Below are positions 938 to 60,563 of a stretch of 64,000 bases of DNA, one piece after another. This stretch comes from Glaucostegus cemiculus. Taxonomy: Eukaryota. Positions within the stretch are counted from its first letter, which is position 1, and each line of letters starts with the position of its first letter. The notes under the pieces were generated by a model. That model made no database searches. It had not been told where the DNA came from and worked only from the letters and a program-made list of their open reading frames with translations. The stretch is taken from NCBI GenBank assembly GCA_976551045.1, contig CDPCPM010000160.1, positions 1,550,001 to 1,614,000 on the forward strand, given 5' to 3'. The translations under genes were made by a program, and so were the position numbers.

Positions 938-941
938 TCAT
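938..941 (-). CDS. candidate alternative terminal exon of gene A (completes Arg, then TGA)
   Basis: Acceptor tgttgttcacacag|A TGA is in phase with the donor AAG AG|gtatgt inside the ITAM exon. Confidence 0.4.
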
Positions 942-1247
942 CTGTGTGAACAACATAGAGTTCAAGTTTATATTAACCATCTAAATTTTACCAACTTTTG
1001 TCGTCAACTGTTTTATCCAGCCACTTCATTTGTTTAATAATGCCACTGGTTCACTAACGATGATCCCGTAAAGGATCATTGACTCCCTCCATGTCCCCGC
1101 CTACCTGCAAGCCGAAAATCCTACATATTATACATCAGTTAATCATAGGCAACATGTTAGCGAGCACAACCCGGCCCCGCATCTGTTACACAATGGCGAA
1201 ACATGGAGAACTAATGGATGCGCTTCCTTTTCAAATAACATATTGGA

Positions 1248-1319
1248 TCACTTGTCAAATGATGTTCCCACATACCTCTTTAGGTCGCTGTAAACGGATC
1301 GATCTTCCAGCTTCAGTCC
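1248..1319 (-). CDS. gene A cytoplasmic exon, distal ITAM half (GLKLEDRSVYSDLKR[YVGTSFDK*])
   Basis: Acceptor tttaacag|, phase 0; paralog of 60513-60563. Confidence 0.85.
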   Translation of the reverse strand, partial: GLKLEDRSVYSDLKRYVGTSFDK

Positions 1320-1614
1320 CTGTTAAACGTGAATAAATCTCCATGATTCACAACACATTGCAACAGAATCCGTCATTGACAAAAAATAAGTTAAAAATCG
1401 TTAAAAAATACTTCGCGAGTATTTAACACTTGGACACTGAATGGAATTGAGGGACATGGGGACCAGGGCTGAAAGCGCATCTGAGACACACAGTTATGAC
1501 ATTAAATGGCGGAGGAGGCTCAAGGAGTCGAATTACTGACACTTCCTTGTGTTTCTTGGTGGGTGAAATGGAAGCATTTCCTTCAAGAAGGAATGAACAA
1601 AGAAGTTCTCTTAC

Positions 1615-1656
1615 CATGTAAGTGGAGTTTCCATCTGGTGCATTCGTACTTATATT
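1615..1656 (-). CDS. gene A cytoplasmic exon, proximal ITAM tyrosine (NISTNAPDGNSTYM)
   Basis: ctatccag| ... ATG|gtaaga, phase 0-0; paralog of 60161-60199. Confidence 0.88.
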
Positions 1657-1889
1657 CTGGATAGAGAAAAATATATATATATTTGGCAATAACACAAAAA
1701 ATTCAATGATCTCTCCCCACACATGTACTCCGAGATCAATGTTCACATTCTTTACTCAATAATGCACTGTTCGCTTGTTCTGAACTCCGCCTGATTTTAA
1801 CACAGAGTAATAGCGAAATATTGTCTCTGAGATGGTGAAAACCTATCAAGGGAATTACACCATTCGTGAGGCTCTAGTACTTCATATGA

Positions 1890-4090
1890 ACACAAGAAAT
1901 AAGGGCAGGAGTAGGCCATTTGGCCCATCGACCCTGCTCCGCCAATCAATAACGTTGTGACTTATCCGGCCGTGGACTCAGCTCCTCCCACCTACCTGTC
2001 CCCCATAACCCTGAATTCCCCCCAGCATACACAAATCTACCGAACTGCGTCTCACAGATGTTTGAAGAGACAGCCTCTACTGCTTCCCTTGGCAGATAAT
2101 TCTACAGATTCAGTACTTTCTGGGAAAAACAGTCTTCCCTCATCTCCATCCTACATATATTCCACGAATATTGAGGTTATGCGTTATCGCCAATTCCATG
2201 CACACTTTTATTATAGATAAGTCTTTACTTCGACACCTTATTGAACACCTTCTGGGAATTCAAGTACACAACATCCATCTGTCCCCTATATCCGCTACGC
2301 TCATTATATCCTCAAAGAACTCCAGGAAGTTTGTCAAACAGGACATTCACTTCCTGAAACCATGCTAATGCAAACACTCTTATTCATATGTCTCGTTGTT
2401 TCTTCATTGGAGTTAGCTTCAAGCATTTTCCTGACTACAGGTGTCAAGCCAACTGCCATATAGTTGCCAGCCGTTTGCTCACATACTTTTTAAACAATGC
2501 GCCGAGACCTGCCCAAAGTCCAGAAATTTTGGTAAATTCTCACAACCCCGTCTACTATCACTTCCGCAATTTCTTTCAGTTCCCCGGGATACATCCCATC
2601 AGGACCATAGTTCCTATCTGCCTTTCTGACCACGAGTTTACTTATCACTAACCCTTTACTGACAGTGAATGTATCGAGGCCCACCCCTCCCATAGCATCC
2701 ATAACATCATTCTTTGCCATGTTAGACGTCTCATCCAGCGTGACGACAGACCTGAAATAGCGATCCTAGGTCTCGGCTATTTCGACATTACGCAAAATTA
2801 ATTCCCCCTTCTGTCGTTTCGAGGAACCAACGTTCATTTTAGCCACCATTTACCGCTTTGTATAAATACAAAACCATTTACAATCTGTACCTGTATTTTG
2901 TGCCAGTTTTCTTTCATAATCTATCTTCGTTTCCTTATTGCTTGCTCGGTGGTTCTTTGCGACTTTTTAAAGATTACGCAATCTTCCAGTATTCCACTGC
3001 AGTTGGCGACTCTGTCTGCGTGAGCATTTAGCTAATGGCTTCCTTTATTTGCTCTGTTATCCAAGGCTGTCTCTCCGCACGCTCATTGTCGTTGCCTTTA
3101 ACTGCAATATCGACTCCCTCGACCAACTAGATGTCCCCAGTCCATGTGGAAGTTAAGTCCTCGAGGGCAAATGCCGTTGCATGCTAACATGTCAGATATT
3201 TCTTGGTTTATTACCTGTGCCACTGTCATCTTATCATTCCGTGGCCTACAGACAACTCCCACCAGTGCTTTTTTCCGGGAACCAGTCCTAACCTCCACCC
3301 AGATGAACACAATACTCTAATCATTTGAGTTCATACCGTTTCTGACGATCGGACTGACCTCATGCTTAATTCAGAGCGCTACCCTACCTTCCTAAACTTT
3401 CTGCCGATCCGGCCGTATTATATGTGTGCCTTGCATATTTAATCCCCAAACATCTCTACCCTACCACTACATTTCTGTAATGGCAATTAAATCAAACCCC
3501 TTTCTACTGGTTTGTGCCACTTCACTGACCTAGGTTCGAATACTGTGGGCATTGAGATAAAGTGACTTTTAGATTCTAACAAGCTTGGTGCCCTTTGCAT
3601 TTGAATTTTCTCTATTCCACGTTTACTTTTCTAACATTTGCTTTACTCTCTGCATTGCTTCCCTCTGTCGTTCTGCATTGATTGCCATCCACCTGACATA
3701 TAACTTCAAACCCTCTGCAACATCGCGAGCAAGGACATTAACCCCAGTCCTGGCAAGATGAAGATCATTCGGTTTATTCAGGTCCCACTTTCCAACAAAC
3801 CGGTTCTAATGCCTCAGGTAATCTAAAACCCTCCCCACTGCACAACTGATCAAGCCACATATTTATCTAAACGGTGCTGAATGGCCTACCCTGATCAGTC
3901 ACTGGCACTGATAGAAATCCTGAGGTTATTACCTTCGAGGTCCTACTTTTTAACATAACTCCTTGCTCGCTAAATTCGGGTTTTAAGAAATAATCTCGGT
4001 TTATCCCTATATTGTTGGGACCTATGTGCACCACGACGGTGATATAGTGGTTGTTTCTGTCGACCAACTCGTCTTCGTAACTATTGATCA
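1890..4090 (-). mobile_element. degenerate, internally deleted CR1-type LINE
   Basis: ORF1 esterase-like VVVHIGPNNIG (3867-4091), endonuclease-like IWVEVR..LVGVVCRP (3098-3310), RT remnants, and CR1 3' end near 1890-2150. Confidence 0.8.
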
Positions 4091-4553
4091 TAACGCACGA
4101 ATTTAGATCTGTCCGTGGAAGTAGGGGCTTGAATTTTAAGTAATATCTAAAACATGTATGACAATTTGTGGCCTACAGTGATGGCAAACATGTACTGTTG
4201 CTTGTAATAAACACTGAGCAGGCCTACAACTGATCTCAGAATGAAATCTGCCACCTTTGTCCAGCCTTTCCTACCCTTGTAACTCCAGCTCCACCCATAT
4301 TATTGCCATTCGGATGACTCGACAGATCAAGATCAAGGTCAATCACCGGCCGACAACAATTGCGGGCGTTGTCATGAACGCTCCTCCCCCGTAAACGGAG
4401 AAGTTTAAGAAGTCCGACATAGGACTCGGGAAAGGAAAGCTAATGCATGCAGTTCAGAGCTGCCAAATACAAAACTACTCTCATGGCTGCGATGCAACAT
4501 CGCCTTTCCTTAAAACAACACCTGAAGCCACGAATATAATGCCAGGTACCAAC

Positions 4554-4618
4554 CTGTTCATTCCTTGGGAAATTTTCATAGGTCTGCAATGCGTTCACGG
4601 TGTTTGTGGCCAAGGTGC
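4554..4618 (-). CDS. gene A cytoplasmic exon (STLATNTVNALQTYENFPRNEQ)
   Basis: ttatttccatag| ... CAG|gttggt, 65 nt, phase 1-0, same length as paralog 59427-59491. Confidence 0.88.
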
Positions 4619-5054
4619 CTATGGAAATAAAACACATGCAGTCACAGCAGCGAAAAGCATCAGGAGAAGTTATTCAGCACAGAGGAAATCTATCCGGCTC
4701 CATTCATGGGACCAGCTATCAAATTAGGTTCATGACCTCTCCTGGCTATGAGCAAATGAACGTTCGTCCAGTAACTGAAATCATATTATGATGAAAATAA
4801 AGAGAGATTCGCTTTGCATAAACTCGTATTCACCTTCCACACTCACATTCTAGTATTGAGTTGAAAAGTTCAACTTATTTAACCGGACAAAACGTTTAAC
4901 ATAACAGCGGAATTCGTGACCGTTCATTAAGATGCAAATATCCAGCTTCAGTACCGGGTGACACACAGTTCATCAGATCAATTCCCAGAGCCAGAGGAAA
5001 TGTTAATCTTTCCATGGGTGCAGTAACAGAGCGGATGAAAAGGAGTTCACTCAC

Positions 5055-5110
5055 TCTTTCCTCCTGAAGTGATGCTCGTGCCATATTTTGCCTGGGGCGG
5101 ACCTTTCACC
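5055..5110 (-). CDS. gene A first cytoplasmic exon (VKGPPQAKYGTSITSGGK)
   Basis: tttattcag| ... A|gtgagt; phase 2-1 bridges the TM exon and the TYEN exon in frame. Confidence 0.72.
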
Positions 5111-5329
5111 CTGAATAAACATGAAGAGGTCAAAGGTGAATTCTGCAGGAAGTTATTTCCTTGGACTGACACACCGAGTGAGAACTGTTTCTGAAATCCC
5201 ATTTACTGGCAGTCGAGTTATTCCTTGCAGCTGTTCCAGCTATCCGATTTACCCACTTTACCCACTTCTCAATTGTAACTCGAGTATGGATTAATAAACT
5301 CATGATTTGCGGACTGAGGTTAGTTGGTA

Positions 5330-5820
5330 AAAGAGAGTCATTAATACCCAGGAAAGACACATCAGTGCAGGCGCCAGATGTCCTCCACTGCACGGCTCTA
5401 TTTCTATTCCTCAGACTTCTACATATGTCCCCACAATATATATATTTATCCAGCTTCCTCAACTACCACATTGGACGCACTTTCAAAGCATCTGCAGGGA
5501 GATCGTTAAATCTTTCAACAATGCGCCTTGCAGAAACAAAAGCATTTCTTCGACAAGTACCCTGTTGCGTTTATTTTCTAATTGTGACTTTAAACCTCGA
5601 CTCTTTTGCCAAGGTCACCAACCTCCCACTCTCCACATTATCCACCTTCCACATCAGTTTTTGTGCTTCGCTCAAGTCTCCACTCACCCTATCCTTCTCC
5701 AAGGAAAACAGTCCCAGTCTCTCCCACCTATCCCTGATCCCAGGAACCACTTTCCTCTATCTGTTCTGGGCTCTCGCTGAAGTTCTCAGCTGCTTACTGT
5801 AATGTGGTGACCAGAAATAA
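5330..5820 (-). mobile_element. CR1-type LINE 3' fragment
   Basis: CR1-like 3' region (tctccaaggaaaacagtcccagtc, aatgtggtgaccagaa). Confidence 0.55.
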
Positions 5821-5979
5821 AAATTAAATCATGTATCTTACAATACGGACAAGTTTTCTTTTCTGTTTTATATATCTTCCTTCCTATAATACTCCTTGCG
5901 TATGTGGATAAAGACAGGAATTTCGTCTGCCTTCTTAACGAATATAAGAGGGAAACCACTGCATTTTCCGCCTCGGTGG

Positions 5980-6600
5980 TGTCTAACCTGACCCAACAAC
6001 ATCGAATTCTATAACTTCAGGTAACCACTCCCCTCTGTCAATCTTTAACCTTCTGCGACCGGCCCCTCCAGTCCATCTATTTCCCCTCCTCCTCCCTCTC
6101 AATCTGCCCTTCACCAACGTATTCCTCCTTCGGTTTTCCCTCCCTAACACCTTCCCTTTAATCTGTGGACCACTGCCCTCTCCTATCAGATGACATCTGG
6201 TACAGTCCTTTCCCACTTCCATCTAACACCTCCCAGTTCCTGAAACCCATTCTCATTCTACCCTCCCCTCACCTGCCAATCATCTACTCTCTTGGATAGA
6301 CCTATCACCAGCCAGCTCTTCCTCAAACATTTCCCCAACATATTTATACTGGCTACGTCCCCGCTTTCCTTCCAGGCCTCTGGAAAGGTCACGACCTGAA
6401 ACGTCAACACATCGCCAGCCTGCTCATGCCCCACCACCTCCCACATCTTTTTATACTGCCTACCTCCCCACTTTCTTTCGCGTCCTCTGGAAAGGTCTCG
6501 ACCCGAAAAGTCATCTCTCCGTTTCCGTCCACAGGTGCTGCCTCCCCGTTGAGTTCCCCCAGCTACTTTGACTGTAACTTCCTCCATTAACCTCCAACAT
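5980..6600 (+). mobile_element. Penelope-like/non-autonomous repeat end with an internal ~110-bp imperfect direct repeat
   Basis: Two copies of ctctggaaaggtc(a/t)cgacc(t/c)gaaa, followed by cacaggtgctgcctccccgttgagttcccccagc, which resembles a common elasmobranch repeat terminus. Confidence 0.5.
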
Positions 6601-6781
6601 CGGAAGTTCGCGTTCATGGTGTCAACGTCCCTTTGGAGCCACAGGCGTCATTTTATTTTATCTGTTAATACTGTTATGTGGTGGGACACGTTGTTCAGGC
6701 TGTAATTTCGATACAAATTCTGCCTGAATACTCTTCCCATAATTTAAGGTAGAAACAATATTCGGAAGAAAACACATTTAC

Positions 6782-6893
6782 CTGCCAGTTTTCCTTGCGA
6801 TGAACCAACCACTGATTCCGCTGATCAAACCCACACCAAGTAGACCAAGAACGATGCCCGCGATGGCGCCAGGGCCGAGGGTACAACTGGCAT
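6782..6893 (-). CDS. gene A transmembrane exon (DASCTLGPGAIAGIVLGLLGVGLISGISGWFIARKTG)
   Basis: cttaacag| ... AG|gtaaat, phase 1-2; CEACAM1-like PGAIAGIV motif followed by basic stop-transfer residues. Confidence 0.9.
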
Positions 6894-7548
6894 CTGTTAA
6901 GGGTGCTACCACACACAAGAAAGATCTATTTTATATCCGAAAAACAAATTCCTTACAGTAACAATGTGCATTTACATGGCGAACAACTCTTTAATATTAA
7001 TTTATCATCGTATATTTGAAATCGTATTTTGTGTATCAGAATGAAAGTGCAGGGAAGCTGGAGATACTATAGGAGACCAACACGCTGAACTGTGCTCGGA
7101 GTAAACCTAAGCCTCTCCTCTGTGATCAGTAGAAACAGCAAAGGCTCAGTAAACAGAACATCCAACAGTCTTTGTTCTGATGGCTGAGCTCACCCTCTCC
7201 TGTATCATTGCAACAAGCATAGCCCTCCCATATTGTCACTTGTCTGGTTTGACCTGTCCTTGAAAGTCCACCAACGTTTTCGTCAAACAGGAATATAACG
7301 TTCTCTGGTCTGGCCGTAAGTGGAGAGATTAAATCAATGTGGTTCTGGCGAATGGTGAAGTCTTTTTACATTCTCTCCACAACATTCATCGTTCCTGACA
7401 ACATTAAGAAGTCTCATAGCTGATCTTTCTATCTGATTATCCATTTGGAAATGCGACGGGAGGACGAGAGTGGGATGTTCGGGAAACAAAATGTCTGGGT
7501 CTTTAATCAGCGGGTGTGAATAGAACAAGCACAGAAACATTCACTCAC

Positions 7549-7806
7549 CTTGTGTGGTAACCTCAACAGTAAGCTTACTACTCCTATTGGTTACGCGGTT
7601 AATAACCAGACATGTATAATTCCTACTGTTAACCGAGCTCCCTGACACAAGGGTGAGCTCCTGCCCTGTCTGGAGAGTAATGTTCCCGTTGTACCATGCG
7701 TATTCACCACAGGGGACTGACAGAGCAAAGGAAGTTAATGACAGATTTGTTCCAAGATTTGCAACAACTGGAGACTGCGGCAGAATTCTGACCTTCTCAG
7801 GACCAT
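7549..7806 (-). CDS. gene A IgC-like B-type exon (YGPEKVRILPQ...), B-strand Cys replaced by Ser
   Basis: 258 nt, phase 1-1; paralog of 53209-53466. Confidence 0.88.
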
Positions 7807-7887
7807 CTACAAAACGAGAATACGTGTCGATTCTGTGTTCAGTAATATCAGATACAAACTAACGTTGTTGTTTGCCTGCATACTCAC

Positions 7888-8163
7888 AGTAAACATTCAA
7901 GTAGGTCTCTCCAGCGCCACTGTTGAAACTGTTGCTGACGACGCACTTGTATGTCCCTGCATCATTTCTGTTCACACTAATTATGGTTAGTTCAGAATTG
8001 TCGGCGGATGTGAATATTCTACTATTTTCCTGTATGGGTTGGTTATTTTTCAACCATGTCCGTTTCTGAACAGTGCCCCAGGCGTGACAGGTCAGTGCTA
8101 CGGCATCGACGTTTTCCACTGGAGTGGAATCGTTGTTGAAGACAGTCACGTCAGACACGGCCT
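7888..8163 (-). CDS. gene A IgC-like A-type exon (EAVSDVTV...LTC..W..YKC)
   Basis: 276 nt, tttacag| ... T|gtgagt; paralog of 52846-53121. Confidence 0.92.
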
Positions 8164-9299
8164 CTGTAAATAAAGTTGAAATGGAATTTGTGTTACACTG
8201 TTGTCTTAACCACAACCTGTTCGTAAGAGGTGGGTATCGCCAACTCAAGACCATAACCAATCCTGGAATTCTGTCCAATTTGATTCAATATCCAACCAGA
8301 TATTAGACTAAGCAGAACTCGAGTACAGTGTTTAAATATTGGCTACTGTCTGTTCAAGAGAGACAGACGTTTACTTGGTTATAGATTGCTGGTCTTGGTC
8401 AACATTCAAAAATAAACAGGCAGCTCCCTTACTATGTTTGGACTCGCCTTATTAGTCCTATCAAAATGTATCACCTTACAGATTTCGGGATTAAATTCCA
8501 TTAGCCGCTGCACATCACAGTTTACCAACTCATCAATAACAACATCTCACCCGCCTAATCTCCCACTTCTCAAAACAGCTGATGTCCAACATTTTGGATA
8601 TAGCAGAAAGGTTCAAAACATTAATCCCTGTGGTGCATCGCTGGTCACAGACACCTAATCACAAACATTGCCCATAACGTACCCCCTGCCTTCTATCAAC
8701 AAACGACATTTTTAAAGCATTGATAAAAAGTAAACCACATGCAAATTTACTCCATGTCCCGATGGCCCTATTGGAGGCAGTAATTTGTAAAGGCAAAATA
8801 ATTCAGACAGTAGGTTTCAACGGACATATTATATTATAGAGATAAATCCAACTGGGAATTTCATTTGGAATGAAATCATGAAGAACACTGGTGCAAGGTT
8901 CGAAAGTGTTGATTGCATTCACTATAGAGTGCAGTAAGAATCCCCACAGCATTAAAACCAGAGGTGGGTAACGCGTCTTCAGACTGGAGTTAATGCCATT
9001 TCCACTGTCAAACCCAACGAAAGAGTCTCTTGCTCCTGCCGATCAAGCTGTGGCTCCTGATTCACACATCCCATTCCAAATAAAGGCAAGGGTACGATCC
9101 ATGATTGTCGAGCTAAGTAACTGATGAAGCACAGTTATCACTTCGCATCGATACAAACCATCAAATGAGCTATAGCACAGAGCATAGAAATAGTCCTTTC
9201 AGCCTAAACAATCCGTGCTAGTCTCTAAACTCGCCCTAACTGTCTTCGTCCAAACGTCTCGGTGTAATGAAGGACTCCCATCGTCCTCAATGCTTTTCA

Positions 9300-9635
9300 A
9301 CCTCTAAGTAAATGCCACGACCGGTGAAACCATCCTCACAAATCAGGCTCAAGGACGGCTTTTACCCTCTCCTGCAGGACTATTCAACGGTCCCCTAGCA
9401 CAATAAGATGGACTCCTGACCTCAAAATCTACCTCGTTATGACCTTGCACGTTATTGTCTCCCTGCACTGCACTTTCTATGTAGCTGTTGCACTTTATTC
9501 TGCATTCCGTTATTGTTTTTACTTGTACTGCCTCGATGCATTGTGTAATGAATTGATTTCTACAAACAGAATGCAAGGGAGGTTCAGCAGTTTACCTCGG
9601 TACTTGAGACAATAATAATAAACCAATAAACCACG
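9300..9635 (+). mobile_element. 3' end of a non-LTR retroelement family (family uncertain)
   Basis: Ends cctcggtacttgagacaataataataaaccaataaacca; a second copy lies inverted at about 27985-28215. Confidence 0.55.
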
Positions 9636-10347
9636 ACTTGCGGCACAGTTCTCTCCGGGCATGCAACATACTGACAATCCTCAATTTCCCGTTGAGTTTC
9701 CTACTGACTCTGCTGCTGACCGTGCCCAGATTATCTCCTCTCGAGAGGAGGGGGATTCATTCTCTCTACGTCCATTCCTTTCACCATGTTAAATATTACA
9801 AGACGTCAACCTGGAACAGTAACTGTTTCTCTCTGCGCTTGGCTGCCTGTCGCGCTCCGCTTCTTGTGATCAGACAACTTATTTAAAAGACGCCCCTCGA
9901 CCTGCTATTCACACCAGACAAGCGACCCACCCTTTTGCTGTAGCTCAGAACAGTTTGTTTGATCAAATCTATGTCCTCTGGCGAAGTAAATATGACGAGG
10001 CTTAGGACGAGAGTGAGGCGTCCATTGTTGGTTGTCCTGAGAGGCCAAACGAACAACTGCACTCATCGTTTCTCGGCCTCTGTCCCTGACGTGTTCGGCT
10101 TTGTGATTTTCATTGGACAATGCACGAGCAGTAAGACATTTGAGACTGTAACTTGATCAGCCAAACAAAACAAAAACAATTCCGAGTTGCATTTTCTCAA
10201 TCAACACACTCATTCTTCAACATGCAGAATTCTGGATCGTTATACTGAATCGGTAGTGTGATCGGGTTCGGACGATTAGTTCAATCACACTGTGCGCCAT
10301 CACTGTTCAACACGGGACGAGAGAAAGGGGAGAAACGGATGACCTAC

Positions 10348-10607
10348 CAAGCACAATGATTTGCATGGTTGAGGCGTTGTACCTTCCGTCACATGGTTAT
10401 AGGCCTCACAAGTGTAATTCCCTGTGTCCCACACAGAAATACTGTCAAGGATGAGCTCTTGCCCAGTTTGTAGATAGGCATCGTTCAGATACCAGTCCAG
10501 ATCAGCAACTGGACTCGACTGTGCAAAACATGCTGACGTGATGGTGCTTCCGGCAATGTGAAGAGCGGAGTCAGGGTTAGTGGTGATATATGGACGATCC
10601 GGTCCGT
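10348..10607 (-). pseudogene. gene A IgC-like B-type exon, disrupted
   Basis: Paralog of 46814-47074 (261 nt) but 260 nt long (1-nt loss near 10384); acceptor reads ttttCG instead of ttttAG. Confidence 0.88.
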
Positions 10608-10977
10608 CGAAAACAAACTCACAAAATGGTTTGTGGTAAACTGCACGAATGGGAAATGCAACACCGAAGCAGAGAGAGAGAGGAACAGGAGCCCATCACC
10701 ACAGAGAGTGCACACCAGCATGGTTTCTATTCGTGCAAACCGAGCCCTAGTTTTATGGTCACCGTTACCGAGACTGGGATTTTCATCTTGAAGAACCCGA
10801 TTTCAACAAAGTTCCTAAGGGAGATTCGGACAAGTCTCCCATTCTCCTTACAGTAGTTCTGGCGTTGGTCTCAAGAGGGCATCACTGTGCTACTGTCCCA
10901 CATTCCCTCTCTTGCAACCCCGTGCCCAGCAGGACTGGTGTTACACTGTGGAACAATTGATCTCTAGGGACACTTAC

Positions 10978-47900: not shown

Positions 47901-50900
47901 ACCAGGGCAGCACTCCGTTTTCGAGAGACGGCCTGGCTTCACCACCACAATCCCGAAGAATGTCGGAATTAAAACAAACTAACTCCCATGGTACACCTGG
48001 AGACCGCACGGCCCATTTTCCCGTGCGAGCTCTTTGTAGAGTAATCCATCTCAGTCCCATTACTTACACTTCTCCTGCAGGCTATTGTCCAGCCAGTGCC
48101 GCCCAGATTAATTTCAGAGTCCAGAGTGACTCTATTTCTTGTTGGAGTGGCTCGTCATTCCCATTTAATACTAATTCCCTGCTTTAAAAGCATCCTTTAC
48201 ATTCTCATTGTATCGTGGTTGGGGCTTCTCTGGTCTCGGAGCTGTGATTCAGCAACACCACCAGCTACGCCACTGTGACCCTCACCCCTCGCCACCACGC
48301 AATTTTTAAACCCATTCAAGTGACAGTACCTTAGTACTTTTACGTTTTGCTGAGGCTTTTTTAGAATTGTTCTGAATTTCAGACTTGGCACATTATTGAC
48401 GAAGATTAGGCACTCTGTACCTATCAAGCAAACATTTGCCAACCTAATATCAGAGAGAGATATTTTACCCAGAGAGTGGTTGGGGCATGCAATGCGCTGC
48501 CTGGGGCGCTGGTGGAGGCAGGTGCATTGGTCAAATTCAAGCGATTGCTAGATAAGCATTATGGAGGAGTTTAAAATAGAGGGATATGTCGGAGTAAGGT
48601 GTTAGATAGTATTAGGCGATGTTTAAAGGTCGGAACAACATTGTGGGACGAAGGGCCTGTGTTGTGCTGCGCTGTTCTATGTTCAGTGTTCTAATGAAAG
48701 ATTATTTCATTTCCATTTCTCTGAAACCCACCTGTGGAAATGTGTCAGATCAAATGTTCCCCAAATTTGGGGCAACAGGAATAATCAACTTTCCTAACAA
48801 AGAACGGTGCAAAGCTTGTTGGAGTGATCAGATTACAAGATTTGCCGTCATTGACTCATTTCTCTTGTTTACTGAAATCCATTTTCACCCAATACTTCCT
48901 CTATAAAGTTTTCGGTTAACTCATGTCGAGGTAACACAAAACAATGCATCCACGTATTTTAGCGGCGGGTCTCTTTTTTTAAATTATTTAAACGAATTCC
49001 TTGTTGAAGAAAATCTTCCCCTTGCTAAGATATATAAGATCACGATAGGTTTGTTATTTAACTGCTCGATTACTTGCAGAGCTTCCATGCATTTAGTTCA
49101 TTTGGCTGTCGCTGGCGACCTTAGTCCTTACTCTATAACCCACAATAGCATTCGGAAGGCGACGTTCAGCTGTTTTCTTAAACCACTGAGTCTTCTCATG
49201 CACTTGTAACGAACAAGTAACAGGCTGCATACATTAGCTGACTGTTGAACGCCACCACTGTACCAAACACATTCAGCGGGAACTATTTTACAAGGTGTTT
49301 ATTGTGGCAACAAAAGCGGGTCAGAGGCTGTGAATCCTATGGTGAGTGATTCACTTCCCAACACGCCAAGTGTCTCCACAATCTAAAAGGCACAAGTCAG
49401 TGGTGTGACGGGGCGTTGTTGCCGCCCCAGCAACACACGAGAATCTTCACACTATCCAGAACCAAGCAGCCCGCTCGATCAAAGCCCAAACCTCCCCTGG
49501 ACAGTCAATCCCTCCACCACCTGCGCCAGTGGCTGCAGTGTGCACCAACTTCAAATTGCCCTGCCGTTACCCGCCCAGACTAGCCTGACAGCGGCTAACC
49601 CAGAACGCTACCTCGTCCACCGCTAATGACAATGGCAGAGAGTACAGGGGTACACCACCACCTGCAGATTACCCAGACTTGGAAAAACATTTCAGTGACT
49701 TCTCTGTCACTGGGTGAAAGCCAAAGATTCTCACCACCGCCTTCTCGGGAGAGTGAGTGCAGAACCATAATGCCAGTACCAGTAAGTGAATAAGTAAACA
49801 TCTGGAAGAGATATAAAATGGACTCCATACCTATCATCCCTGCTTTCCAAACTGTTTAATTAGCAAGACACAGTTAACACTTTGGGATGGGAGAAGCAAG
49901 CTGTGCTGAAATTCTTTCTGATTCTTTGAATTTCTTGACTACAAAGAGCTATGAAGAGTTAGTCAGTGACTGTGCAAACGGCTGTGGCAGGCGGAGCTTT
50001 GGACTATGGGGGGGTAGGGTGCAGAGTCATCAGGAACAGGCAGGAAAGTGGAACTGACGCCAATAACAACTCGGTCATGATATTATGAGAGGTTAGATGA
50101 GTCGAACGGTCGACACCTGCTGTGTTACACGTGTTCCACCGAGCTAATAATTGAAAGAAGGTATAAATAATAACGGAATTTAAATCTCCAACAACAAATC
50201 TTTCTCACTGAAGTCTCGTTTTAGGCTTGTCGACAGGTTGTCATTTCAGTCTGACCTCTTAGAATTAAATATTAACTTGAGATGTTTCTGATATTTACCA
50301 CTTGTATTTTGAGGGCATTGTAGGTCTCCCTTAGTGCGCGTTATCTCTCCTAATGCGTAACTGGCAGATGAATATCTAATCTCTGCGACATTACCTGTGG
50401 GTTTCAACGTTTGGTTTTACCTTAACGCCTCACAAGTAAATATCCTAGTACACCCGTGCCTATACATTTAAGGGAAGGGGTATGAGATGTGGGGGGGAAT
50501 AAGGGACATTTACTTTCACCCGGAAGTACTGATTGAGGAGGTGTAGGGGGTGCACACCAATTTCACAGAACTTCACAAATATTAAGCAAAGCAATTGGAA
50601 TGCCAGGACATAGAAGGCTGTGAACTTGGCACTGGAAATTGGGATTATTACGGATAGATAACAGATTGCCGGCATGAACTTTGCAAGCCGAAAGAGTCTG
50701 TTTCCATTCTCTGTTACTCTGTATCTCTCGGACCGGACTGATGCAGTCCTGTGGATTTTGTCACAATGGACTTTAACCTGTGTGTTTTTATTTTTTTTTA
50801 AGTCTCCTTATGAGAAAAGCAGAGACGGAGTATAATGCCAAAGATGATGAACTGCCAATCCCCGGTCAGTTGTCTTTAATGAGAATTCTCACATCTGGGG

Positions 50901-53900
50901 AGGGTGAGGAGTGGAGTTGTGACAACGAATCCAAGGATGAGGAGCTTCAATGGCGGAATCTCTGGGATCGTTCACCTTGTGTTTAACATACGGAAGGATG
51001 TATATAGTGATAGAGAGGGTGGGTGAGAGGAGAGCAGAGCAGAGGAGAGCAGAGAAGAGGAGAGGAGAGCAGAGAGAGGAGAGAGAGGGGAGAGATGTGA
51101 GAAAGAAGGGAAGAGAGATATGATAGAGTGGAGAGAAGGGAAGCAAAGAGAGCGGGGAAGAGAGAGAGCAGTTGTTCACAGTGACGGACCGGACAACACG
51201 GAATACTGGCAAAAGAGCAAAGTTATAAACCTGTAATTTTAAGCAAAGACAGCTCCTAAAAACTGATTCTGTGTTCTGTTCTGTGCATCCGCAACTGTCT
51301 TTGTTGTTCTTACAAATAACTATTGATTGATTATCGTGTTACAAGAGTTTACTTTTAACCAGTACAGATTTGGCTTTCTTGATCACAGACTTTACCTTTC
51401 TCAGCGGTCAAACATTGCCTTGTCAATAAATCGCAAGCACATCATCAACAGGTGGTGTTCTGCCATTCGGCCCCTCGAGCACCCTCTGATACTCAATGAT
51501 GTTATCGCTGCTCCGTGATCCCCAAACCCTTAACTCCCATTTCGCCGAATACACCTCCGTCTATGCCGGGTTAGAACACATAATGTCTGATCCCCACAGC
51601 TCCCTAGAATTTTCTCCACATCTCCGGTTGAAGATAGAGACCCCATAATTCCGAACCTTGGTCCCCAGCTGTACAATTTCCCCAGAAGGGGAACTATCTT
51701 CTCGACAGCTGTATTACTCTGGTGTGTTTGATATCAGATCAAACTGAAATTTAAAATTACAATGCTAACACAGACCATCAGACAAATAGGAGAATATGCA
51801 GGCCACTCGGCCTCTATAAACTAACCCGGCATTCGAATCGATGCAGCTGATCATTGTTGGCCTCTGCTCCAGTTCTCAGCCACTTCGCCATAACCATCTA
51901 GTCCTCGATCGTTCAAATATTTATCAATCTCCACCTTAAATTTATCCAGTGATCCGGCATCCACCACGCTCGGAAATAGAATCCAAGAGAATCACTGCAC
52001 TCTGAGAGAAGACATTTCCCTTTACCCACGTTTTAAATAACCGGGCCTTTATAATGTAACTGTGCTGGCTTGTTCATGAGTCTCCCTCTGGTAGAAACAT
52101 CTTAGCATCGGACATAGAACAGGCGCTTCGGCCCACTCTATCTGTGCTGAACATGTGCCAAATTAAACTGATTCCATCTGCCTGCACATGATCCACACCC
52201 CTCCATTCCCTTACTGTTTATATCTCTTGGACACCAATATGGTGTCGCTTCCATCAGCAGCCCTGAACGCTCCTTCCAGTCACCCACCACTCTGTGATAA
52301 GAACTGAGCCCACAATCTCCTTTGAACTTTCCCCCTCTGCCCAAGGATGTGCCCTCTTGAATCCAGAGTGTAACCTCTCAAGCAGACTTAGGATCTTATA
52401 TGATGAAATAAGAACACCTCCATTCTTCTGAGCACCAATGAATACAAACCCAAACTCTCCAGGTTATGGTGAGGCTCAGGCTGAGGATTAGGGTTCCGGT
52501 TAGGTTTAGGGTCAGGGCCATGCATTGTGTAGGGTTCCTGTTGTCTTAATAGAAAAACCCACACCCCAGGAATGAGCCTGGTGAATCTGCTTTGGGCCTC
52601 CTCCAATGCTACTATATCGGGGGGTTTAGGTAAGGGGACGATATCTGTGTACAGTATTCCAGATGTGACCTCTCCAGAATCCTGTACAACTGTAACAGGA
52701 CCCTCCAATTCATCAATTCCAATTCCTTTGCAGTGAAGGCCAAGGTGCCGGTGACAACTATGTCTTGGTGAACAGGGGGCCTTGATGATGGGAGGATACT
52801 GCGTTAAAAGGTGTAACTCCATTTCGCCTTTACTTGTATTTACAGAACCCGTGTCTAATGTCAATGTAGCACGCAACAATTTAAGTCCCGTGGAAATCAA
52901 CGATACAGTTGTACTCATTTGTGACGCGCAGGGTACTATTCAGAGACGAACATGGTTGAAAAATAACCTACCCATCCAGGAAAATGACAGAATATATACA
53001 TCTTCAGATAAAGCAAATCTGACCATAACCCGTGTTAACAGAACTGACACCGCAACATATAACTGTACCGTAAGCAATGATTACAACAGCGGCAGTGCAG
53101 CAATCTACATGCAAGTTAACTGTAAGTTGGCAGACTGCTCAAAACATTAGCTTGCGTTTGATATTATTCATTACAGAATCCGCATACTTTCTTAATTTCT
53201 GTTTGCAGATGGACCGGAAAACGTTAGAATTCTGCCGCAGGGACCCGTTGAGGCAGATATTGGTTCACGTCTTACATTAACTTGTTCTGCCCAGTCAGTC
53301 CCCAGTGGTGAATATAAATGGTACAATCGGACAAATCATCTACAGACAGGGCAGCAGTACACCATCGAGCCAGGAAGGTCGGTTGACAGTGGGAATTATA
53401 CTTGTGAGGTTTATAACAACGTAACCATGAAACGCAGCAGCCGCACCGTCGAAGTACTCGCACGGAGTAAGTACATTTTCTCTCTGTATTTGACTGAGAT
53501 TGTCTTCATAAAGATCTCAGCAGGTGTATTTTCAGAACCTCCCGGTCTCCTTCTCTGTCTGACTTGCTAATCAGAAGGACAATGATTCGGTGTTCTTGGA
53601 AACTTTAAATGTGGAAACAATTATCAGCCAAGACAAAGGGTTTAAAGGGATTCACTTATTAGCGATGAACACGTTATTTTAAATTCCTTGGATACGGCTA
53701 CAACGGATGAGGTTACCTTCCAGCTTTGACAAAGCTTTGGTAACTCAAGAACAAGTGAAACTCTGGGTGAACTTAATGGAGAGTTGTTTTCACTGCTTCG
53801 ATGATTGTTAGCAGGACCACTGGAAACGGTTCTACACCATGACAGTTTCGGTTGACAGCACTGCTTTTGTTGACGGGCAGATTCTGGAGTTTTGAGTTGA

Positions 53901-56900
53901 TGGAATGTTTCTCAGCACCCAGAAACTCGGGCAGTACTAACTGAACATCAGGAAGCGCGGACGGTAATAAACCTGTGTGTGTAAGATTCCACAGCTGGAG
54001 ATACGGAAAACAGCAATGCTTGAGCCAATTCTGACAATTTAAGTAACAGAATGTTCTGGAATGAAGTCAGAAAATTCAGTAGGTCCAGGAGTGCCCGCGG
54101 ATAGAGAAACTGCGTCACTGTTTCAGGTTGCAGATACTGACCCGGGGCAGAGAGTTGGAGAAATCAGTAACGGCGGCCTCGAAATTGAAATGGACCGTCA
54201 CTGGAGACGGAGGGAAAATAGACTGTGGGATTCCTCGACCAGTTCTTGCCGAGGGTCTTCCACTTGAATCGTTAACTCTTTCCCTCTGCACTGATGCTCC
54301 CTGACCGGTTGAGTGGTTCCAGGATTTCCGCTTTTCATTTAAGTTTTCCCCCAGCATCTACAGTTTTCTGTTTCCCATTTTCATCGAGATCAGATCAATA
54401 AACCGGTGAGGAAACGTTACCCTTTGTCTTTAAGCAAACTGCCGGACGCGGGGTCCGCGTGTTCATGTGCTTACGGACTCTGTCTCGGCAGGGCATAGTG
54501 AGAGGACAGTTGGAAGTGCACATGAATGCAGTAATAGCGACTGTTTTCCATGAAGGCAAACCGGTTTTCTGGGAGGATGCCTTGGTGTGTGCAGAATGGA
54601 TTCACTTTGGAGCTTCAGGGAAAAAAAGAGATATTGAGTAGGAAAGCCATGAAATTATGATAATCATTCCTAATACCGTGCTTGGGGTGCAAGTATTGTC
54701 TGCTGTCCCGTGTGCCACACCAGGGAGGATGTGAATGTCTCAGAACCTGCAGAGAGATCTGTTGGTGTGCACCCGGAGGTCAGGGATTTCAATTCCATGG
54801 ATATAGGGGAGTAGCAGGGACTATTCCCCTCGGAACAAAGCAGACTGAGGGGCGACTTCTTAAGGAGTAGATGAAGCCGTCTGCTTTTGTTAAACAATAA
54901 ATGCGGTCGAGTTGTGCGGAAGAGCTATATAGTGCATGACTTGGAACTCACTGCCCACAAGTGCTGTAGAGGAGCAGACAATTATTGATTCTGAAAGGAA
55001 ATGGTGTCGGCCCTTGACTGAGATAATCTTGCAGCACACCGGATAGATCGGGACAATCTTACAGGTTGGCTCACTCTCTGGACAGCAAGCATGAACTGAT
55101 GGGCCGACTGGCACTTCCCCTCACGCACTGAGTTTATGACTTGTGCAGACGTCAGTGGGGACATGGAAATTACCCTAGAAACGGCAAACGTTGAAAATAT
55201 GAAATAAAGTGCCGGAAAACTATTATCTCAGGAAGCACCTGCGGAAAGAGAAACGCTTAACTTCAACTGTTCCCCTCTCCACTGGTGTCCTTCCTAACAA
55301 GCTGGTATTCTCCAATATTTCTGTTTTCATTTCTCCGGACTCTGTAGCTCCCAGGGTCCGCGGTTCACGGGACAACAAATTCAAATGTAAGCTTTAAAAA
55401 GTTAGGTGAAACTGATGAAAACATTCATCAGTCACGCAATCATTGACATTTCCGGTCCGTTTCTCTCTGTGCAAATTATGACAAACCTTCTCGGTGTTTT
55501 TGCGGAAGGTTCTGTAACTACGTCAGATGAAGAGCTTTCCCCGCTGTGTTTTTCATTCTTTTCATTTATTGCGGAATTCTTGGGGGTCTCAGTTTACTCG
55601 AGCGGCTTTGAAATGGTAATTGGACAATATCTAAAAAGAAAGTGCATTCCCCTCGCTGCAATTCGAATTAGAGTTTGTTGTCCAATGGGATAAAGTGCCC
55701 ATTCAAATGGTCTTGAAGGTCACTCAGCTCAAGGGACATTCTGACCATCTGGGCGAAGTCCGGATCCAACAACGACTCGATAAGGAATGCCGCAAAATGC
55801 AGTAGAACCTAATTTCTCCTGAAAGGTTATCAGGAAAATTGATGTATTTTGGGGGGAGATCCGTGCAATGGTTCTGATCCAGATGGATTTATGAAGAATT
55901 TTATTTCCAATTCAGTTCTCGATTTTTCTGCTACTCCTGGGCATGAAGCATGACAGGACGTTTCCCCTCGCGGTGGCCACGGAGTGCACGCCTCCACCGA
56001 CACTGGAGACAGCAACAATGAGAAATCACTTCAGGCCCATTATTTCATCAACAAGTGTTGTTGTCTGTAATTCTTCACTTGTGTTGCGCAAAGGTATCGC
56101 ACGGACTCGGCAGGCATATGCTTCAGAAATCTTTATTGTAGCATGATATGATGGAGAGCCAGACTCCTAAAAGCAGAGTTCCAGCACGCCCAAGAAATTA
56201 CAACCTTTATTTCTATTGCAGCAGTAGGTAACTACAAACATCCAAGAACAAAAAGCAGAAGTGAATAGCAGAAATAAATGGCGGAAGTGAGAAACCATGG
56301 TTTCAGCCTCAGTCTGGCACACATAAGGAACAAAGTATAATTAGATTGCCGCATCCTACGTGGCGGACACACAAAAAAACATCACCATACATAGAGAGTT
56401 GTTTGGCTATCGGCAGAGCAAAGGTTAATGCTCTAGCTCACCATGTGCAGAAATTCGAGCACATTCTCAACTGTCTTTAACATTTCTCCCGCAACGTATT
56501 TTACTCTCCGACCCATTTAAACCTTCCTCGACAATAAACCGTGCGATTCACACACAAGCGCGGTGGACGCTGGACAGCACACCCGTCTTCAGGAAGCAAC
56601 GCCTACCATTTCTCAATTAACAGCAAGAGAAACGGAAAGACTGATTAGCTGATATCTGTTCCCAGAATTGTTTTGGGCAAATTGCAAACTATTATTTTCT
56701 GCCATTTATTTTCTGATGTTTAAAGCTCAATAATGAGCTTGAGGTACCACAAATAATCAAACTTGCACGGATATTGACTCTGTTCACTTAGTTCCTTTCC
56801 AATGCATCACGTCTCCTTATTTCCTCAATTCCATTTTCAGTTCGCAATGTTCACACTCCCGGAGGTTTGTCAGCTGCGGCGATAGCCGGGATTGTGATTG

Positions 56901-59900
56901 GCGTTGTTGCTGGAATTGCCATTGTGGGTGCATTCGCTGCCTGGTTTATCAAGAAATATGCAAGCAGGTATATATGTTTCATTCAATCTTTACCTTCATG
57001 TTGATTATACTCCCTAAGACCTGATGTCCTGAAGTAACCAATGATTTGTTGCAGAATGATTTGCGTCTACTCTATCCTGTCAGCCGACGGTGTGCGTATT
57101 TCTCCCGAAGCTTCCATACTTGTTCGATTTACAGCTGCTCTTTAAATCTGCTCCGCTGTTTGACGGTTAGTCATTCAACCTCACTGCCGTGCATTAGCAA
57201 TCAAGCAATCAAGCACATTCCTCCATGACAGAAGGGGCATTCGGCAATTTCTTTCCCCATATATTTGTGAATGGACTGCTTCACACATACACGGCAGGGG
57301 GACAGCAGCAAACACAGGTCGCGGATCTGCACGTCAGCACTGACTGCTATTGTTCGACGCAGAGCCCTGTATTATTAATCCGACTTCTCTTGTTGAAATA
57401 CCACCATCCGAACAAGAGAAACTGAAGCTGGAGAATATCACAGCCCCTCGAGCCAATTATGCTCTACAATTTGATTGTTGATTTGATCTTGGCCTCAGTT
57501 CAACATATCCCCCATTCTCAAAAGCCCTTCACTCCGCATTGCACCAAGGATTTTTCTCTCTCGGCCGTGAGTATGTTCAATGCTTCCAAATCCAAGGAAT
57601 GACAGAAGCCAAAGATTCACCGCCATTCATTACTCCTCCACACCTTCTGATACAGGTGAAACGTTCTTCTGAAACATGCCCCCATGTTCAGGAGAAGTTC
57701 ACTGTGGGAAACAACAACTTACCCGTCCATACCTGCTCAAAAAGAGGTTTCAGGTTCAAAGACGGTGAGGGCTAACTTGAGCTGACTGAAGAAATCTGAC
57801 CAATGACCATGAACAGCAAAATCATCCCATAGTCCAAGCTGATTCACACCTATCCATCTAGAAGGCGAGAGTGCGTCACTATCTTGTGTTATCTCCACGA
57901 ATCTCAGAGACCATATGTGGAAAGATAAACGTATCGACTTAATATTCTTTCTTCAGAAGTATCGTTATCTGAACATAAATAGGCCGAATATTACAATGGG
58001 AATGTGATTGTTTCTACTTGCGGTTTGATTGACACCTCTGTGCCCAGAGCAGATAATTTGATATCTCTGTTTCAACGTCCTGTTCCCTACTGTCAAGGTA
58101 CAACAATAAATGTGATTTCTGTTGGAATTCCCGTTCACTGAATTAGTCTATTGACCAATCTTTTATTTTCAGAATTCATATTTTGATTCGTGTTTGCTTA
58201 CTTAGGATGAAAGTTGCGGAGATACATCACGGGAGAGGAAAACCAGGAGTAAACAGTGAGTAGAAAGCGTTTTCACAGCTGTCAGTATAAGACGTTGGTT
58301 GGGCCACACTTGGAATATTGTGTGCTGTTCTGTTCACCGCAGTATGGAACGTATGTGGTCGTGTGGGGAAGAGATTCGCCAGGATGTGGCCTGGAATGGA
58401 GGACTTTAGTTCCAAGGGGAGGTTATACGCTGGGATAGTTGTCCGTGGAGTACAGGTGGCTGAAGCTAACCTTTCCAGTTTCACATAATCATGAGGTATA
58501 TACTCACTGACCTTTCCGAACGTAAATGAACGTGGATCAAGAGTAAATATGTGAGAAGGAAAATACTGAAAGGAGATAAGAGAGGCACGTTTGTCAATCA
58601 AACTGTGGTGGGTGATTGGAACTGGCTGCCAGAGGAGGTGGTTGAGATAGGTATAATCACAGCGTTCACAAAGCATTTTCACAGGTGTACGTATAGGAAA
58701 GGTAAAGAGGGATAGGATCCAAATGCAGGAACTTAGGATGAAAGTGGATGCGCATTTCTGTCGGCATGGTTTCGTCGGGCCAAATGGCCTGTTTCGCGGC
58801 TGCAATACTCCATCACTTCATGTGACAGGAAATACAAAGGATGTTGCTGCGCAGATCCGTGGACCTCACAGAGATGCTCGTATAATTCTTAGAGTCAAAA
58901 ATGTGAAAGAGGCAGTCGGAATCATGCGGTGTCCTGGGATGGCTTAAACGGCCGCAGAGACGGTTATATTCCAGTGAGAAGAAGTGGCGTCAGGGGAGGT
59001 GACTGAGGGGGAATATTTCTGTATAGAGTTGCTACAGTCTGGAATGTTGCTCCATTTTTCAGTTTTGTCGCCCGTCAGTCTTCAAGGTTGCAAGACTCTG
59101 AAGCGGAATTGAGTAGCGGTTGAGTTTGCCCGGTGAGGTCCATCTTCTGCATAACTAAAATGTACAATGCTTGACCTGGCTGTGCACTGAACTGGATCGG
59201 TGCCAACTTCTCAAGGATAACAAGGATCTGCAAATCCTGCCACCGAGAAGGAGAAGAACAGGATCAGACCTTAAGTTGGTCAAATCTACAGGGCTTGTGC
59301 GAAAGGGGCGGAACTCATGAAATTGGTGTGATGCGCTTCCAATGTATCCAACAGGCGTTCCTCCGTAGGTGAAAACTACTATTGAATCTGTTTGCTCAGA
59401 TAAATAAACGTGTTGTATTCCCACAGACACCTTGGCTACCGATGTTGCAGACTCGGCACAGACGTATGAAAATATGCCAAGGAATCAGAAGGTTAGTACA
59501 AGTGCATCATGATGACATTCTAATCAACATCATTTTTATATACATAACGTAGAATGTTGATGTAGAACATAAAAATAATTCCTCCTACAGCAGTTGTGGA
59601 TTGGGGTCAGCAGACTGGGGTCCTTAGGAATATATATCTATAAAACTTGCATTCTTCCTTTTCATGTTCGAATTCACTCTCCTACCTCAGAACAATCTTT
59701 AACACACGTTTGGATAAGGAATACGCAGGAATAGGAAGCCTTAAGAGGGCTCTGGGCCAAATGCGGGCAGTCAGGACATGATCGTTGGCTCCTTGGTCAG
59801 GATGGACCAGTTGGGCCGAATGACCCGTCTCCATGCAGTAAGATTGTATCGCTCCGTGACTCTATGAATCGTTGGGAATGGTCATGATCAGGTGTAGCTC

Positions 59901-60563
59901 GCCAACTGACTTCACTATCAAACTATCGTAACACTGGACTCTCTAATAATTTGGTTAATGACACTTTGTGGGTCCACATCTGTGAGCGAATTGCGAAACA
60001 AACTCTATCTGTGTGTAGACTAGGTTTTTGGTACAAATTTGTTTAAAGCCGCAATGGATGTGAACACTGCTTCCTTTAGGTTTCATTTGGAGGAGAGATA
60101 ATGACATTCTCTGTCTTGTCGGTTGATTCATTCAGTATTTTATTATTTTCCCATCAACAGAGTAGCGCTCACCCGACCGATGAAAACTCCACTTACATGG
60201 TAAGGGAATTGTGTTTTATTCTTTTGAGGCAAATACTTCTATTTTCCCCGTTTCGAACCAAACCCAAACGTAAACCACTCTATCACGGGAACCCCCTTTA
60301 ACACATGGCAAGTTCACAGCTGATCCTATCTCCCACGTACACTTTCCGGCCCGATCCTCATGTACGCCGATTCACGCACTGTCCGAGAGCCTATCGGTCT
60401 CAGCGCGGAACACTCTCAACGTCTTCTCTATGATCTTATTGTACACGTCTGTCAATGTCTGCTTCTGCTAATATTTGTTTGCGAATCATAACGACCTGTT
60501 CATGTTCAACAGGGGCTGGTGTTGGAAGACCGATCACTTTACAGCGACCTAAGGAGGAATTAG
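29912..60563 (+). CDS. CEACAM-like gene B, 15 coding exons, 949 aa: SP-N-(A-B)x4-TM-ITAM
   Basis: All exons are GT-AG and phase-consistent; summed CDS is 2850 nt with no internal stop found. Confidence 0.9.
30130..30444 (+). CDS. gene B exon 2, Cys-free IgV-like N domain
   Basis: 315 nt, phase 1-1; NGSLLL...DSGEY, no cysteines. Confidence 0.94.
33930..35030 (+). mobile_element. degenerate CR1-type LINE fragments
   Basis: Remnants similar to the CR1 RT C-terminus (aagtgtgatgtcatgcacttc; ggccacttctggaatgctgtgcagttt). Confidence 0.55.
35429..35704 (+). CDS. gene B exon 3, IgC-like A1
   Basis: 276 nt, tttgacag| ... T|gtaagt; LTC..W..FVC. Confidence 0.92.
36336..36599 (+). CDS. gene B exon 4, IgC-like B1
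   Basis: 264 nt, tttag| ... G|gtaggt; FSC..SNP.AQFQW..GNYTC. Confidence 0.92.
37200..38340 (-). mobile_element. degenerate CR1-type LINE RT fragment
   Basis: Similar to 13900-14600 (acatccactgccctaccctcatc; atcccatcagggcctggggac). Confidence 0.7.
39600..39790 (-). mobile_element. SINE fragment (V-SINE-like)
   Basis: Reverse complement of cacagctacagagacccgggtccaatcctgacctc, which is box B-like. Confidence 0.5.
40638..40679. repeat. perfect 21-bp tandem duplication
   Basis: gttaagatgcagagagaggtg x2. Confidence 0.9.
40932..41207 (+). CDS. gene B exon 5, IgC-like A2
   Basis: 276 nt, taacag| ... T|gtaagt. Confidence 0.93.
43007..43270 (+). CDS. gene B exon 6, IgC-like B2
   Basis: 264 nt, ttttag| ... 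G|gtatgt; YGPEN...FSC..W..YAC. Confidence 0.93.
44997..45272 (+). CDS. gene B exon 7, IgC-like A3
   Basis: 276 nt, caacag| ... T|gtaagt. Confidence 0.93.
45420..45725 (+). mobile_element. elasmobranch-type SINE remnant (family uncertain)
   Basis: gcagctggggaatttaaattc...aacggtgacca...ggggaaggaaa...tgtgactccagaccc resembles a common shark SINE core; a related partial copy lies near 47290-47430. Confidence 0.5.
46814..47074 (+). CDS. gene B exon 8, IgC-like B3 (absent from the ORF track)
   Basis: 261 nt; YGPDRPNITTDPDSPPYLAGSTVTFTCSAGSRPVANLDWYLNG...GNYTCQAFNN; ttttag| ... G|gtatgt. Confidence 0.93.
51010..51170. repeat. purine-rich (GGAGA/GCAGA) low-complexity tract
   Basis: Directly visible. 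Confidence 0.8.
52110..52750 (-). mobile_element. CR1-type LINE 3' fragments
   Basis: ALEEAQSRFTRLIPG and LESLGLYSL..RR (ORF 52388-52918) are CR1 ORF2 C-terminal motifs. Confidence 0.75.
52846..53121 (+). CDS. gene B exon 9, IgC-like A4
   Basis: 276 nt, tttacag| ... T|gtaagt. Confidence 0.93.
53209..53466 (+). CDS. gene B exon 10, IgC-like B4 (YGPENVRILPQ...LTC..W..DSGNYTC)
   Basis: 258 nt, gtttgcag| ... A|gtaagt. Confidence 0.93.
56841..56967 (+). CDS. gene B exon 11, transmembrane (GLSAAAIAGIVIGVVAGIAIVGAFAAWFIKK)
   Basis: ttttcag| ... AG|gtatat, phase 1-2; closely resembles the CEACAM1 TM start GLSPGAIAGIVIGVV. Confidence 0.93.
58206..58255 (+). CDS. gene B exon 12, cytoplasmic (MKVAEIHHGRGKPGVN)
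   Basis: cttag| ... A|gtgagt; phase 2-1 as required to join exons 11 and 13. Confidence 0.72.
58262..58810 (+). mobile_element. CR1-type LINE 3' fragment
   Basis: YKTLVGPHLEYCVLFCSP motif and CR1 3' UTR. Confidence 0.8.
59427..59491 (+). CDS. gene B exon 13, cytoplasmic (NTLATDVADSAQTYENMPRNQK)
   Basis: cccacag| ... AAG|gttagt, phase 1-0. Confidence 0.88.
60161..60199 (+). CDS. gene B exon 14 (SSAHPTDENSTYM)
   Basis: caacag| ... ATG|gtaagg, phase 0-0. Confidence 0.9.
60513..60563 (+). CDS. gene B exon 15 (GLVLEDRSLYSDLRRN*)
   Basis: ttcaacag|, phase 0; TAG at 60561-60563. Confidence 0.88.
   Translation, partial: GLVLEDRSLYSDLRRN

Follow-up and report, generated by a model that had tools for sequence, protein, structure and literature searches.

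The 64,000-nucleotide stretch of the Glaucostegus cemiculus genome analysed here (assembly GCA_976551045.1, contig CDPCPM010000160.1, positions 1,550,001 to 1,614,000; hereafter the window) carries two CEACAM-type receptor genes, gene A on the minus strand (938..24852) and gene B on the plus strand (29912..60563), divergently arranged around a unique spacer of 4.8 kb. Our analyses revealed the exon anatomy of both genes, a separate sawfish ortholog for each cytoplasmic tail, and a divergence between the two genes that grows from their 5′ to their 3′ ends. We consider it likely that A and B are old paralogous activating receptors of the ray whose 5′ ends underwent gene conversion, in a cluster that probably includes one CEACAM1-like inhibitory gene, with an ITSM (a switch motif of the immunoreceptor tyrosine-based kind) in its tail, outside the window.

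Both tails end in YxxL-x7-YxxL, the pattern of an ITAM (an activation motif of the immunoreceptor tyrosine-based kind), interrupted by a phase-0 intron. The motif forms only on splicing, as YM closes exon C3 and GL...YSDL lies in C4, and exon C2 of each gene adds a YxN motif. As far as the supplement legend of PMC5112662 goes, the activating Ceacams of Xenopus have the same build, YxxL-x6-8-YxxL split by a phase-0 intron, together with YxN. The proposal of an earlier reading, made from the sequence alone (the sequence-only reading), that both genes have activating-type tails is therefore borne out by the split motif and YxN in A and B. Some details speak against this assignment. The acidic residue that the strict ITAM requires at -3 of the first tyrosine is Asn in A and B, with acidic residues found instead at -5 in both tails and also at -4 in gene B, and both tyrosine motifs are compatible with the inhibitory motif (ITIM) pattern as well. 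By the strict consensus, the two tails are ITAM-like.

A search with the N exon, confined to longer proteins, returned 28 homologs among 480 candidates, spread over seven genera, all of them sharks or rays. The sawfish Pristis pectinata supplied the nearest N domains (69-70% identity in this search). Three of its models, XP_051901533.1 (P0016) and XP_051901461.1 (P0017), which are ITAM-tailed, and XP_051901304.1 (P0018), which is ITSM-tailed, have N domains 69-74% identical to those of the window. Over the transmembrane and tail portion, A is 91% identical to P0017 and B is 81% identical to P0016, while A and B share only 46%. In a tail tree of 13 of the 28 homologs, B paired with P0016 (99/99), and a second group (98/97) held A, P0017 and four stingray or manta entries. 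Since the A-type tail clade holds stingray and manta, we infer that the A/B duplication predates the split between sawfish and stingray. A simple pattern scan, in which isoforms inflate both counts, found an ITAM tail in 11 and a twin ITSM-type tail in 5 of the 28 homologs. With the sawfish ITSM tail as the query, 284 candidates yielded 5 proteins, which belong to three species, and an ITSM-tailed relative occurs in sawfish, stingray and two sharks. In these relatives, the tails fit one inhibitory gene plus several activating genes. The expanded activating cluster suggested by the sequence-only reading thus has several ITAM members and a separate ITSM member, in the relatives only, and its birth-and-death account was incomplete, leaving out the old duplication and the homogenised-looking 5′ ends. 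It counts against our interpretation that for Pristis we rely on automatic gene models of proteins, and that one of these is chimeric. That model (P0007, XP_051901303.1, named NCAM2-like) fuses an A-type gene of N-transmembrane layout with another gene, of B type, and with a piece of N exon in inverted orientation. This antisense piece is no evidence on whether the sawfish genes lie head to head. In several other shark and ray members of the family (P0001-P0006, P0012), the models place 2-6 N domains in tandem.

Self-BLAST of the window recovered the inverted homology between the two genes. The best block, 24206-24965 against 30551-29799 (86.3% identity), lies at both spacer-facing ends; others include 15572-16653 against 43747-42681 (74.9%) and 17855-18513 against 41575-40885 (77.3%), and the remaining exons are also covered, with E as low as 0.0. 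The intronic flanks reported as shared by the sequence-only reading all fall inside such blocks, and its mirrored exon order holds imperfectly, gene B having an extra exon pair. The 5′ block of gene A (24206..24965, minus strand; 86% identical to 29799-30551) comprises a CCAAT motif (24956-24960), the 5′ untranslated region, leader, intron 1 and N exon, and is a candidate conversion tract; that of gene B (29799..30551, plus strand) has the same contents, with its CCAAT motif at 29804-29808. The start codons are at 24852 (minus strand) for gene A and 29912 (plus strand) for gene B. The unique spacer between the blocks (24966..29798), noted earlier as about 5 kb, contains a (TG)n tract as well as repeats of high copy number. 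This (TG)n-rich tract (29533-29694) stops about 100 bases short of the edge of the gene B homology block. A bidirectional promoter common to both genes was dropped as unneeded, because the CCAAT-leader block is present twice, once per gene, with 4.8 kb in between.

The synonymous difference between A and B follows a steep gradient: 10 of 91 sites (11%) in the leader and N exons, 66.7 of 250 (27%) in the middle exons A2-B3, and 99.5 of 193.7 (51%) from A4 to the tail (5′ versus 3′, Fisher p 9e-12). The non-coding DNA shows the same trend, with 88% identity in intron 1, 91% upstream of the leader (100 nt) and 47-63% around the transmembrane and tail exons. Altogether, identity between 100-nt intron flanks of the two genes ranges over 47-91%, where random stretches give 43.8 +/- 3.1% (maximum 52.3% among 200 pairs), which supports the similarity of intronic flanks noted earlier. 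In N, A and B resemble each other more than either resembles its tail ortholog: A and B are 75% identical, A and P0017 71%, and B and P0016 70%. In the approximately unbiased (AU) test on the N tree, the grouping of A with P0017 was rejected (p 0.001). The synonymous gradient from 11% to 51%, together with this rejection for gene A, therefore suggests that the 5′ ends of A and B underwent gene conversion, with more than one reading of the donor gene. A similar sign is seen in sawfish, where the N domains of the ITAM-tailed P0017 and the ITSM-tailed P0018 are 90% identical, within the 80-93% given for paired Xenopus ceacams in the consulted portion of PMC5112662. A sawfish B-type ITAM gene and the ITSM gene are 90-92% identical over three C domains.

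The N exon has a dN/dS of 1.09 between A and B, and its residue changes are concentrated in positions 31-54, corresponding to the C-C'-C'' strands as checked on the predicted structure (11 of 24, versus 15 of 80 elsewhere; p 0.014). Several observations weigh against conversion followed by diversification. The AU test left the grouping of B with P0016 unrejected (p 0.07), so that the N-exon signs of conversion reach AU significance for gene A only, and support for the A+B clade of N domains was moderate in both trees (94/86 and 78/81; 21 proteins in one and 9 in the other, from the 28 homologs). The dN/dS contrast between N and the C domains was not significant (p 0.09), exon A3 has a similar ratio of 1.08, the C-C'-C'' region was chosen after the differences had been viewed, and its enrichment over five N domains gave p 0.06. 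Moreover, a third gene could have converted both 5′ blocks, instead of A and B converting each other.

A cysteine-free IgV-like N domain, which thus lacks the intrachain disulfide, is a mark of CEACAMs, and the N domains of A and B have 0 Cys each. The predicted fold of the N domain has the V-type strand order (predicted local distance difference test score 95.5). In a sequence search of solved structures, the N exon matched mouse CEACAM1 first (E 0.00075) and CD2 next (E 0.022), and the sawfish ortholog P0016 matched CEA (E 9e-93) and CEACAM1 (2e-48), well ahead of the first non-CEACAM protein (4e-24). No Pfam family was assigned to the N domain at E 0.001. In Foldseek, the predicted fold gave a generic IgV signal, led by PD-L1 and TIGIT, with the CEA N domain at rank 10. 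Because Foldseek places PD-L1 above CEA, the family is not fixable from the fold alone; the CEACAM-like identity first claimed is upheld by the sequence searches of solved structures, which place CEACAMs first. The alternation of A-type and B-type IgC exons with phase-1 introns is likewise a CEACAM feature found in both genes.

Gene B is intact, with an open frame of 949 aa and GT-AG at every intron, and has the order leader-N-(A-B)x4-transmembrane-C1..C4. Its exon models, like those of gene A, were built from splice signals. The leader (29912..29963) and cysteine-free N exon (30130..30444) are followed by eight IgC exons, A1 (35429..35704), B1 (36336..36599), A2 (40932..41207), B2 (43007..43270), A3 (44997..45272), B3 (46814..47074), A4 (52846..53121) and B4 (53209..53466), and the protein carries 39 sequons. 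The transmembrane exon (56841..56967), whose helix has no charged residue, precedes C1 (58206..58255), C2 with the YxN motif (59427..59491), C3 with the first ITAM tyrosine (60161..60199) and C4 with the remainder of the ITAM and the stop codon (60513..60563), all on the plus strand. The pair A1/B1 has no counterpart in gene A. Over this pair (35429-36599), shark proteins are 57-62% identical, versus 49% for A1 and 59% for B1 with the best sawfish domain, which suggests that it is an old, retained pair.

Gene A, on the minus strand, has the order leader-N-A2-B2-A3-B3-A4-B4-transmembrane-C1..C5. Its leader (24801..24852, 52 nt), cysteine-free N exon (24313..24630), transmembrane exon (6782..6905; acceptor 6905 as in the sawfish model, alternative 6893) and tail exons C1 (5055..5110), C2 with YxN (4554..4618), C3 with the first ITAM tyrosine (1615..1656), C4 with the remainder of the ITAM (1276..1319) and C5 (938..941), a stop-codon exon inferred from donor and acceptor signals only, are clean. 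A strict hydropathy scan had hinted at a missing transmembrane exon, an idea that was rejected. The A-type exons A2 (18191..18466), A3 (10978..11250, shorter by one codon than its gene B counterpart) and A4 (7888..8163) are open. Four lesions were found, all in B-type exons: B2 (16054..16316) is one base short near 16188 and thus frameshifted, B3 (10348..10607) is one base short near 10387 and has the acceptor CG, and B4 (7549..7806), while open, has its first canonical Cys replaced, a residue retained in 7/7 relatives shown. As assembled, the full exon chain meets its first stop at codon 275, so the sequence-only reading was mistaken in treating both genes as intact. Moreover, the junction of one A-type exon with another yields a stop, which skipping a B exon alone produces. 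Because of these junctions, of the 64 ways to retain or skip the six IgC exons, only 8 leave the frame open as far as the ITAM; B2 and B3 are absent from all 8, and only short isoforms of gene A are predicted to reach it.

These defects would suit a recently dead pseudogene within the same cluster, with B alone working, the chief rival view of the state of gene A, which we regard as unlikely. Contigs from one sample (S1; two runs, X1 and X2, of one study, maybe not independent of the assembly, though differing from it) were compared with gene A over 6700-26500, among the differences listed, and agree with its 3′ part to about 99.7%; their low cover over the N exon of gene A carries no weight. 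Both runs contain the base that gene A lacks at 10387 (7.27/7.27; 9.34/9.34), and therefore one lesion or more stems from misassembly or from a private allele. The site at 16188 is mixed: the added base is seen in 0 of a depth of 6.57 in X1, among the rows listed, and is lacking in part of X2, in favour of a dead gene, while one X2 contig has it (11/17.6). From 10749 to 20820, the identity of the S1 contigs to gene A falls from 99.7% near the transmembrane exon to about 91-93% near 20 kb; the divergence toward the 5′ end may reflect deep allelic variation or paralog contigs. With the leader, N and transmembrane exons undamaged and the tail conserved, we lean toward a short functional receptor for gene A, and short layouts, N-A4-transmembrane and N-transmembrane, are indeed annotated in A-type models of stingray and sawfish.

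A different challenge concerns the gradient itself, which could have arisen without any conversion between A and B, by exon-block shuffling through unequal crossover or by conversion from a third, inhibitory gene. In keeping with this, the ITSM-tailed protein of sawfish has 87-91% identity with A2, B2, B3 and A4 of gene B, and 86% with A2 of gene A; A2/B2 are absent from both sawfish ITAM ortholog models; and the S1 contigs differ from gene A at 5 of 1784 letters over 6700-8483, but at 31 positions plus 5 gaps over 19812-20278. Identity nevertheless peaks exactly at the spacer-facing ends, non-coding DNA included, so we hold this alternative to be less probable than the proposed conversion, though with a real share of the weight, and it does not exclude our main explanation. 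That two haplotypes were joined head to head in the assembly is very improbable. No S1 contig spans the stretch, as such an artefact would permit, but tails sharing 46% identity and each with its own sawfish ortholog show that A and B are not joined haplotypes; moreover, the 3′ exons differ at 51% of synonymous sites, exon numbers differ, and the window has zero ambiguous bases (N). The refuting case raised by the sequence-only reading can thus be set aside.

A bolder extension, which we regard as distinctly improbable, would make the CEACAM N exon of rays a mobile module for sensing pathogens, one that is homogenised between a single inhibitory surface receptor and several activating ones, including a back-to-back activating pair, and that cytosolic NACHT-LRR proteins (NLRs) have captured as an integrated decoy. 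Outside the window, RefSeq models of Hemitrygon (P0025/P0031) and Mobula (P0026/P0037) show NACHT-LRR joined to an N domain of CEACAM type that has no signal; the N domains of the two fusions cluster with support 100/99, and each Mobula isoform lists four accessions. It is possible that these are integrated-decoy NLRs or gene-model fusions. Among the matches listed in the integrated-domain NLR literature, no title concerned a CEACAM N-NLR fusion, and no NLR gene matched in the window with the queries used. Synteny with LIPE, CNFN, PAFAH1B3 and TOMM40 is a further mark of CEACAM loci; in the window, none of 37 queries matched any other gene. Direct-orientation repeats of about 70-74% identity, at 1884-3713 in a gene A tail intron and at 61716-63541 downstream of gene B, are probably pieces of a single transposable element.

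Under the preferred reading of two old activating paralogs with converted 5′ ends, the inverted orientation may allow looping, by which the promoter-leader-N blocks of A and B would pair; conversion between them could keep the 5′ ends alike, and the C-C'-C'' face of N might then re-diversify. A looping mechanism for conversion between CEACAM genes of opposite orientation has been proposed in the consulted parts of PMC5112662 and of the preprint PMC13278318. Gene B would give a long receptor, and gene A, if active, short N-(A4)-transmembrane-ITAM forms in which the damaged middle exons are skipped. By analogy with mammalian CEACAM3, a ligand, probably a microbial adhesin, would bind the cysteine-free N domain, after which Src-family kinases may phosphorylate the ITAM and Syk/GRB2-type proteins may be recruited, with uptake or activation in phagocytes as the putative outcome; these steps draw on established CEACAM3/CEACAM1 biology, in part as given in PMC5112662 and PMC4079198.

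The human counterpart CEACAM3 has N-transmembrane architecture only. The window genes resemble human CEACAM3 and CEACAM1 in the cysteine-free IgV N domain, the ITAM-type tail and the transmembrane segment without a charged residue; CEACAM1 and CEA are the best sequence matches among PDB entries, though by sequence the N domain of the window shows weak similarity (E 0.00075), and the eight IgC domains and 39 sequons of gene B set it apart from CEACAM3. P0016 and P0017 resemble genes B and A, respectively, as tail orthologs, but have fewer Ig pairs. Among the matches listed in the literature searched (including PMC5112662, PMC3628338, PMC4079198, PMC13262535 and PMC13278318, mostly without subscription journals or supplements), we found no analysis of a chondrichthyan CEACAM cluster, only a little-skate expressed sequence tag homolog and passing mentions; a term search of PMC8455134 gave no mention of CEACAM. 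If the sawfish models and the ray locus are read together, they suggest that one inhibitory and several activating genes, with split ITAMs and 5′ conversion, were already present in the cartilaginous-fish lineage, which, if true, would extend the pathogen-decoy and paired-receptor model to the base of jawed vertebrates. The locus also supplies testable pairs of N domains.

The closest parallel is the set of group 1 ceacam paired receptors of Xenopus, which, in the available text of PMC5112662, share with A and B the phase-0-split ITAM, YxN and opposite orientation, as well as conversion of the N exon followed by non-synonymous change on the CC'C''FG face, and whose N domains are described as nearest to those of fish. 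The Xenopus conversion, however, joins ITIM and ITAM genes and involves the N exon only; in the ray, two ITAM genes stand opposed, the tract takes in the promoter, the leader and intron 1, and exchange seems to have reached the C domains too. In the reptiles, the CEACAM1 and decoy genes of the preprint PMC13278318, as far as consulted, likewise vary in the number of A/B pairs, face in opposite directions and share intron similarity adjoining N; there the decoy pairs with CEACAM1 itself, whereas in the ray the putative inhibitory partner lies outside the window. The paired-receptor pattern is already known from frogs, reptiles and mammals, and since the mechanism itself is known the surprise is modest; what differs here is a facing pair that is activating on both sides and a conversion tract that includes promoter and leader.

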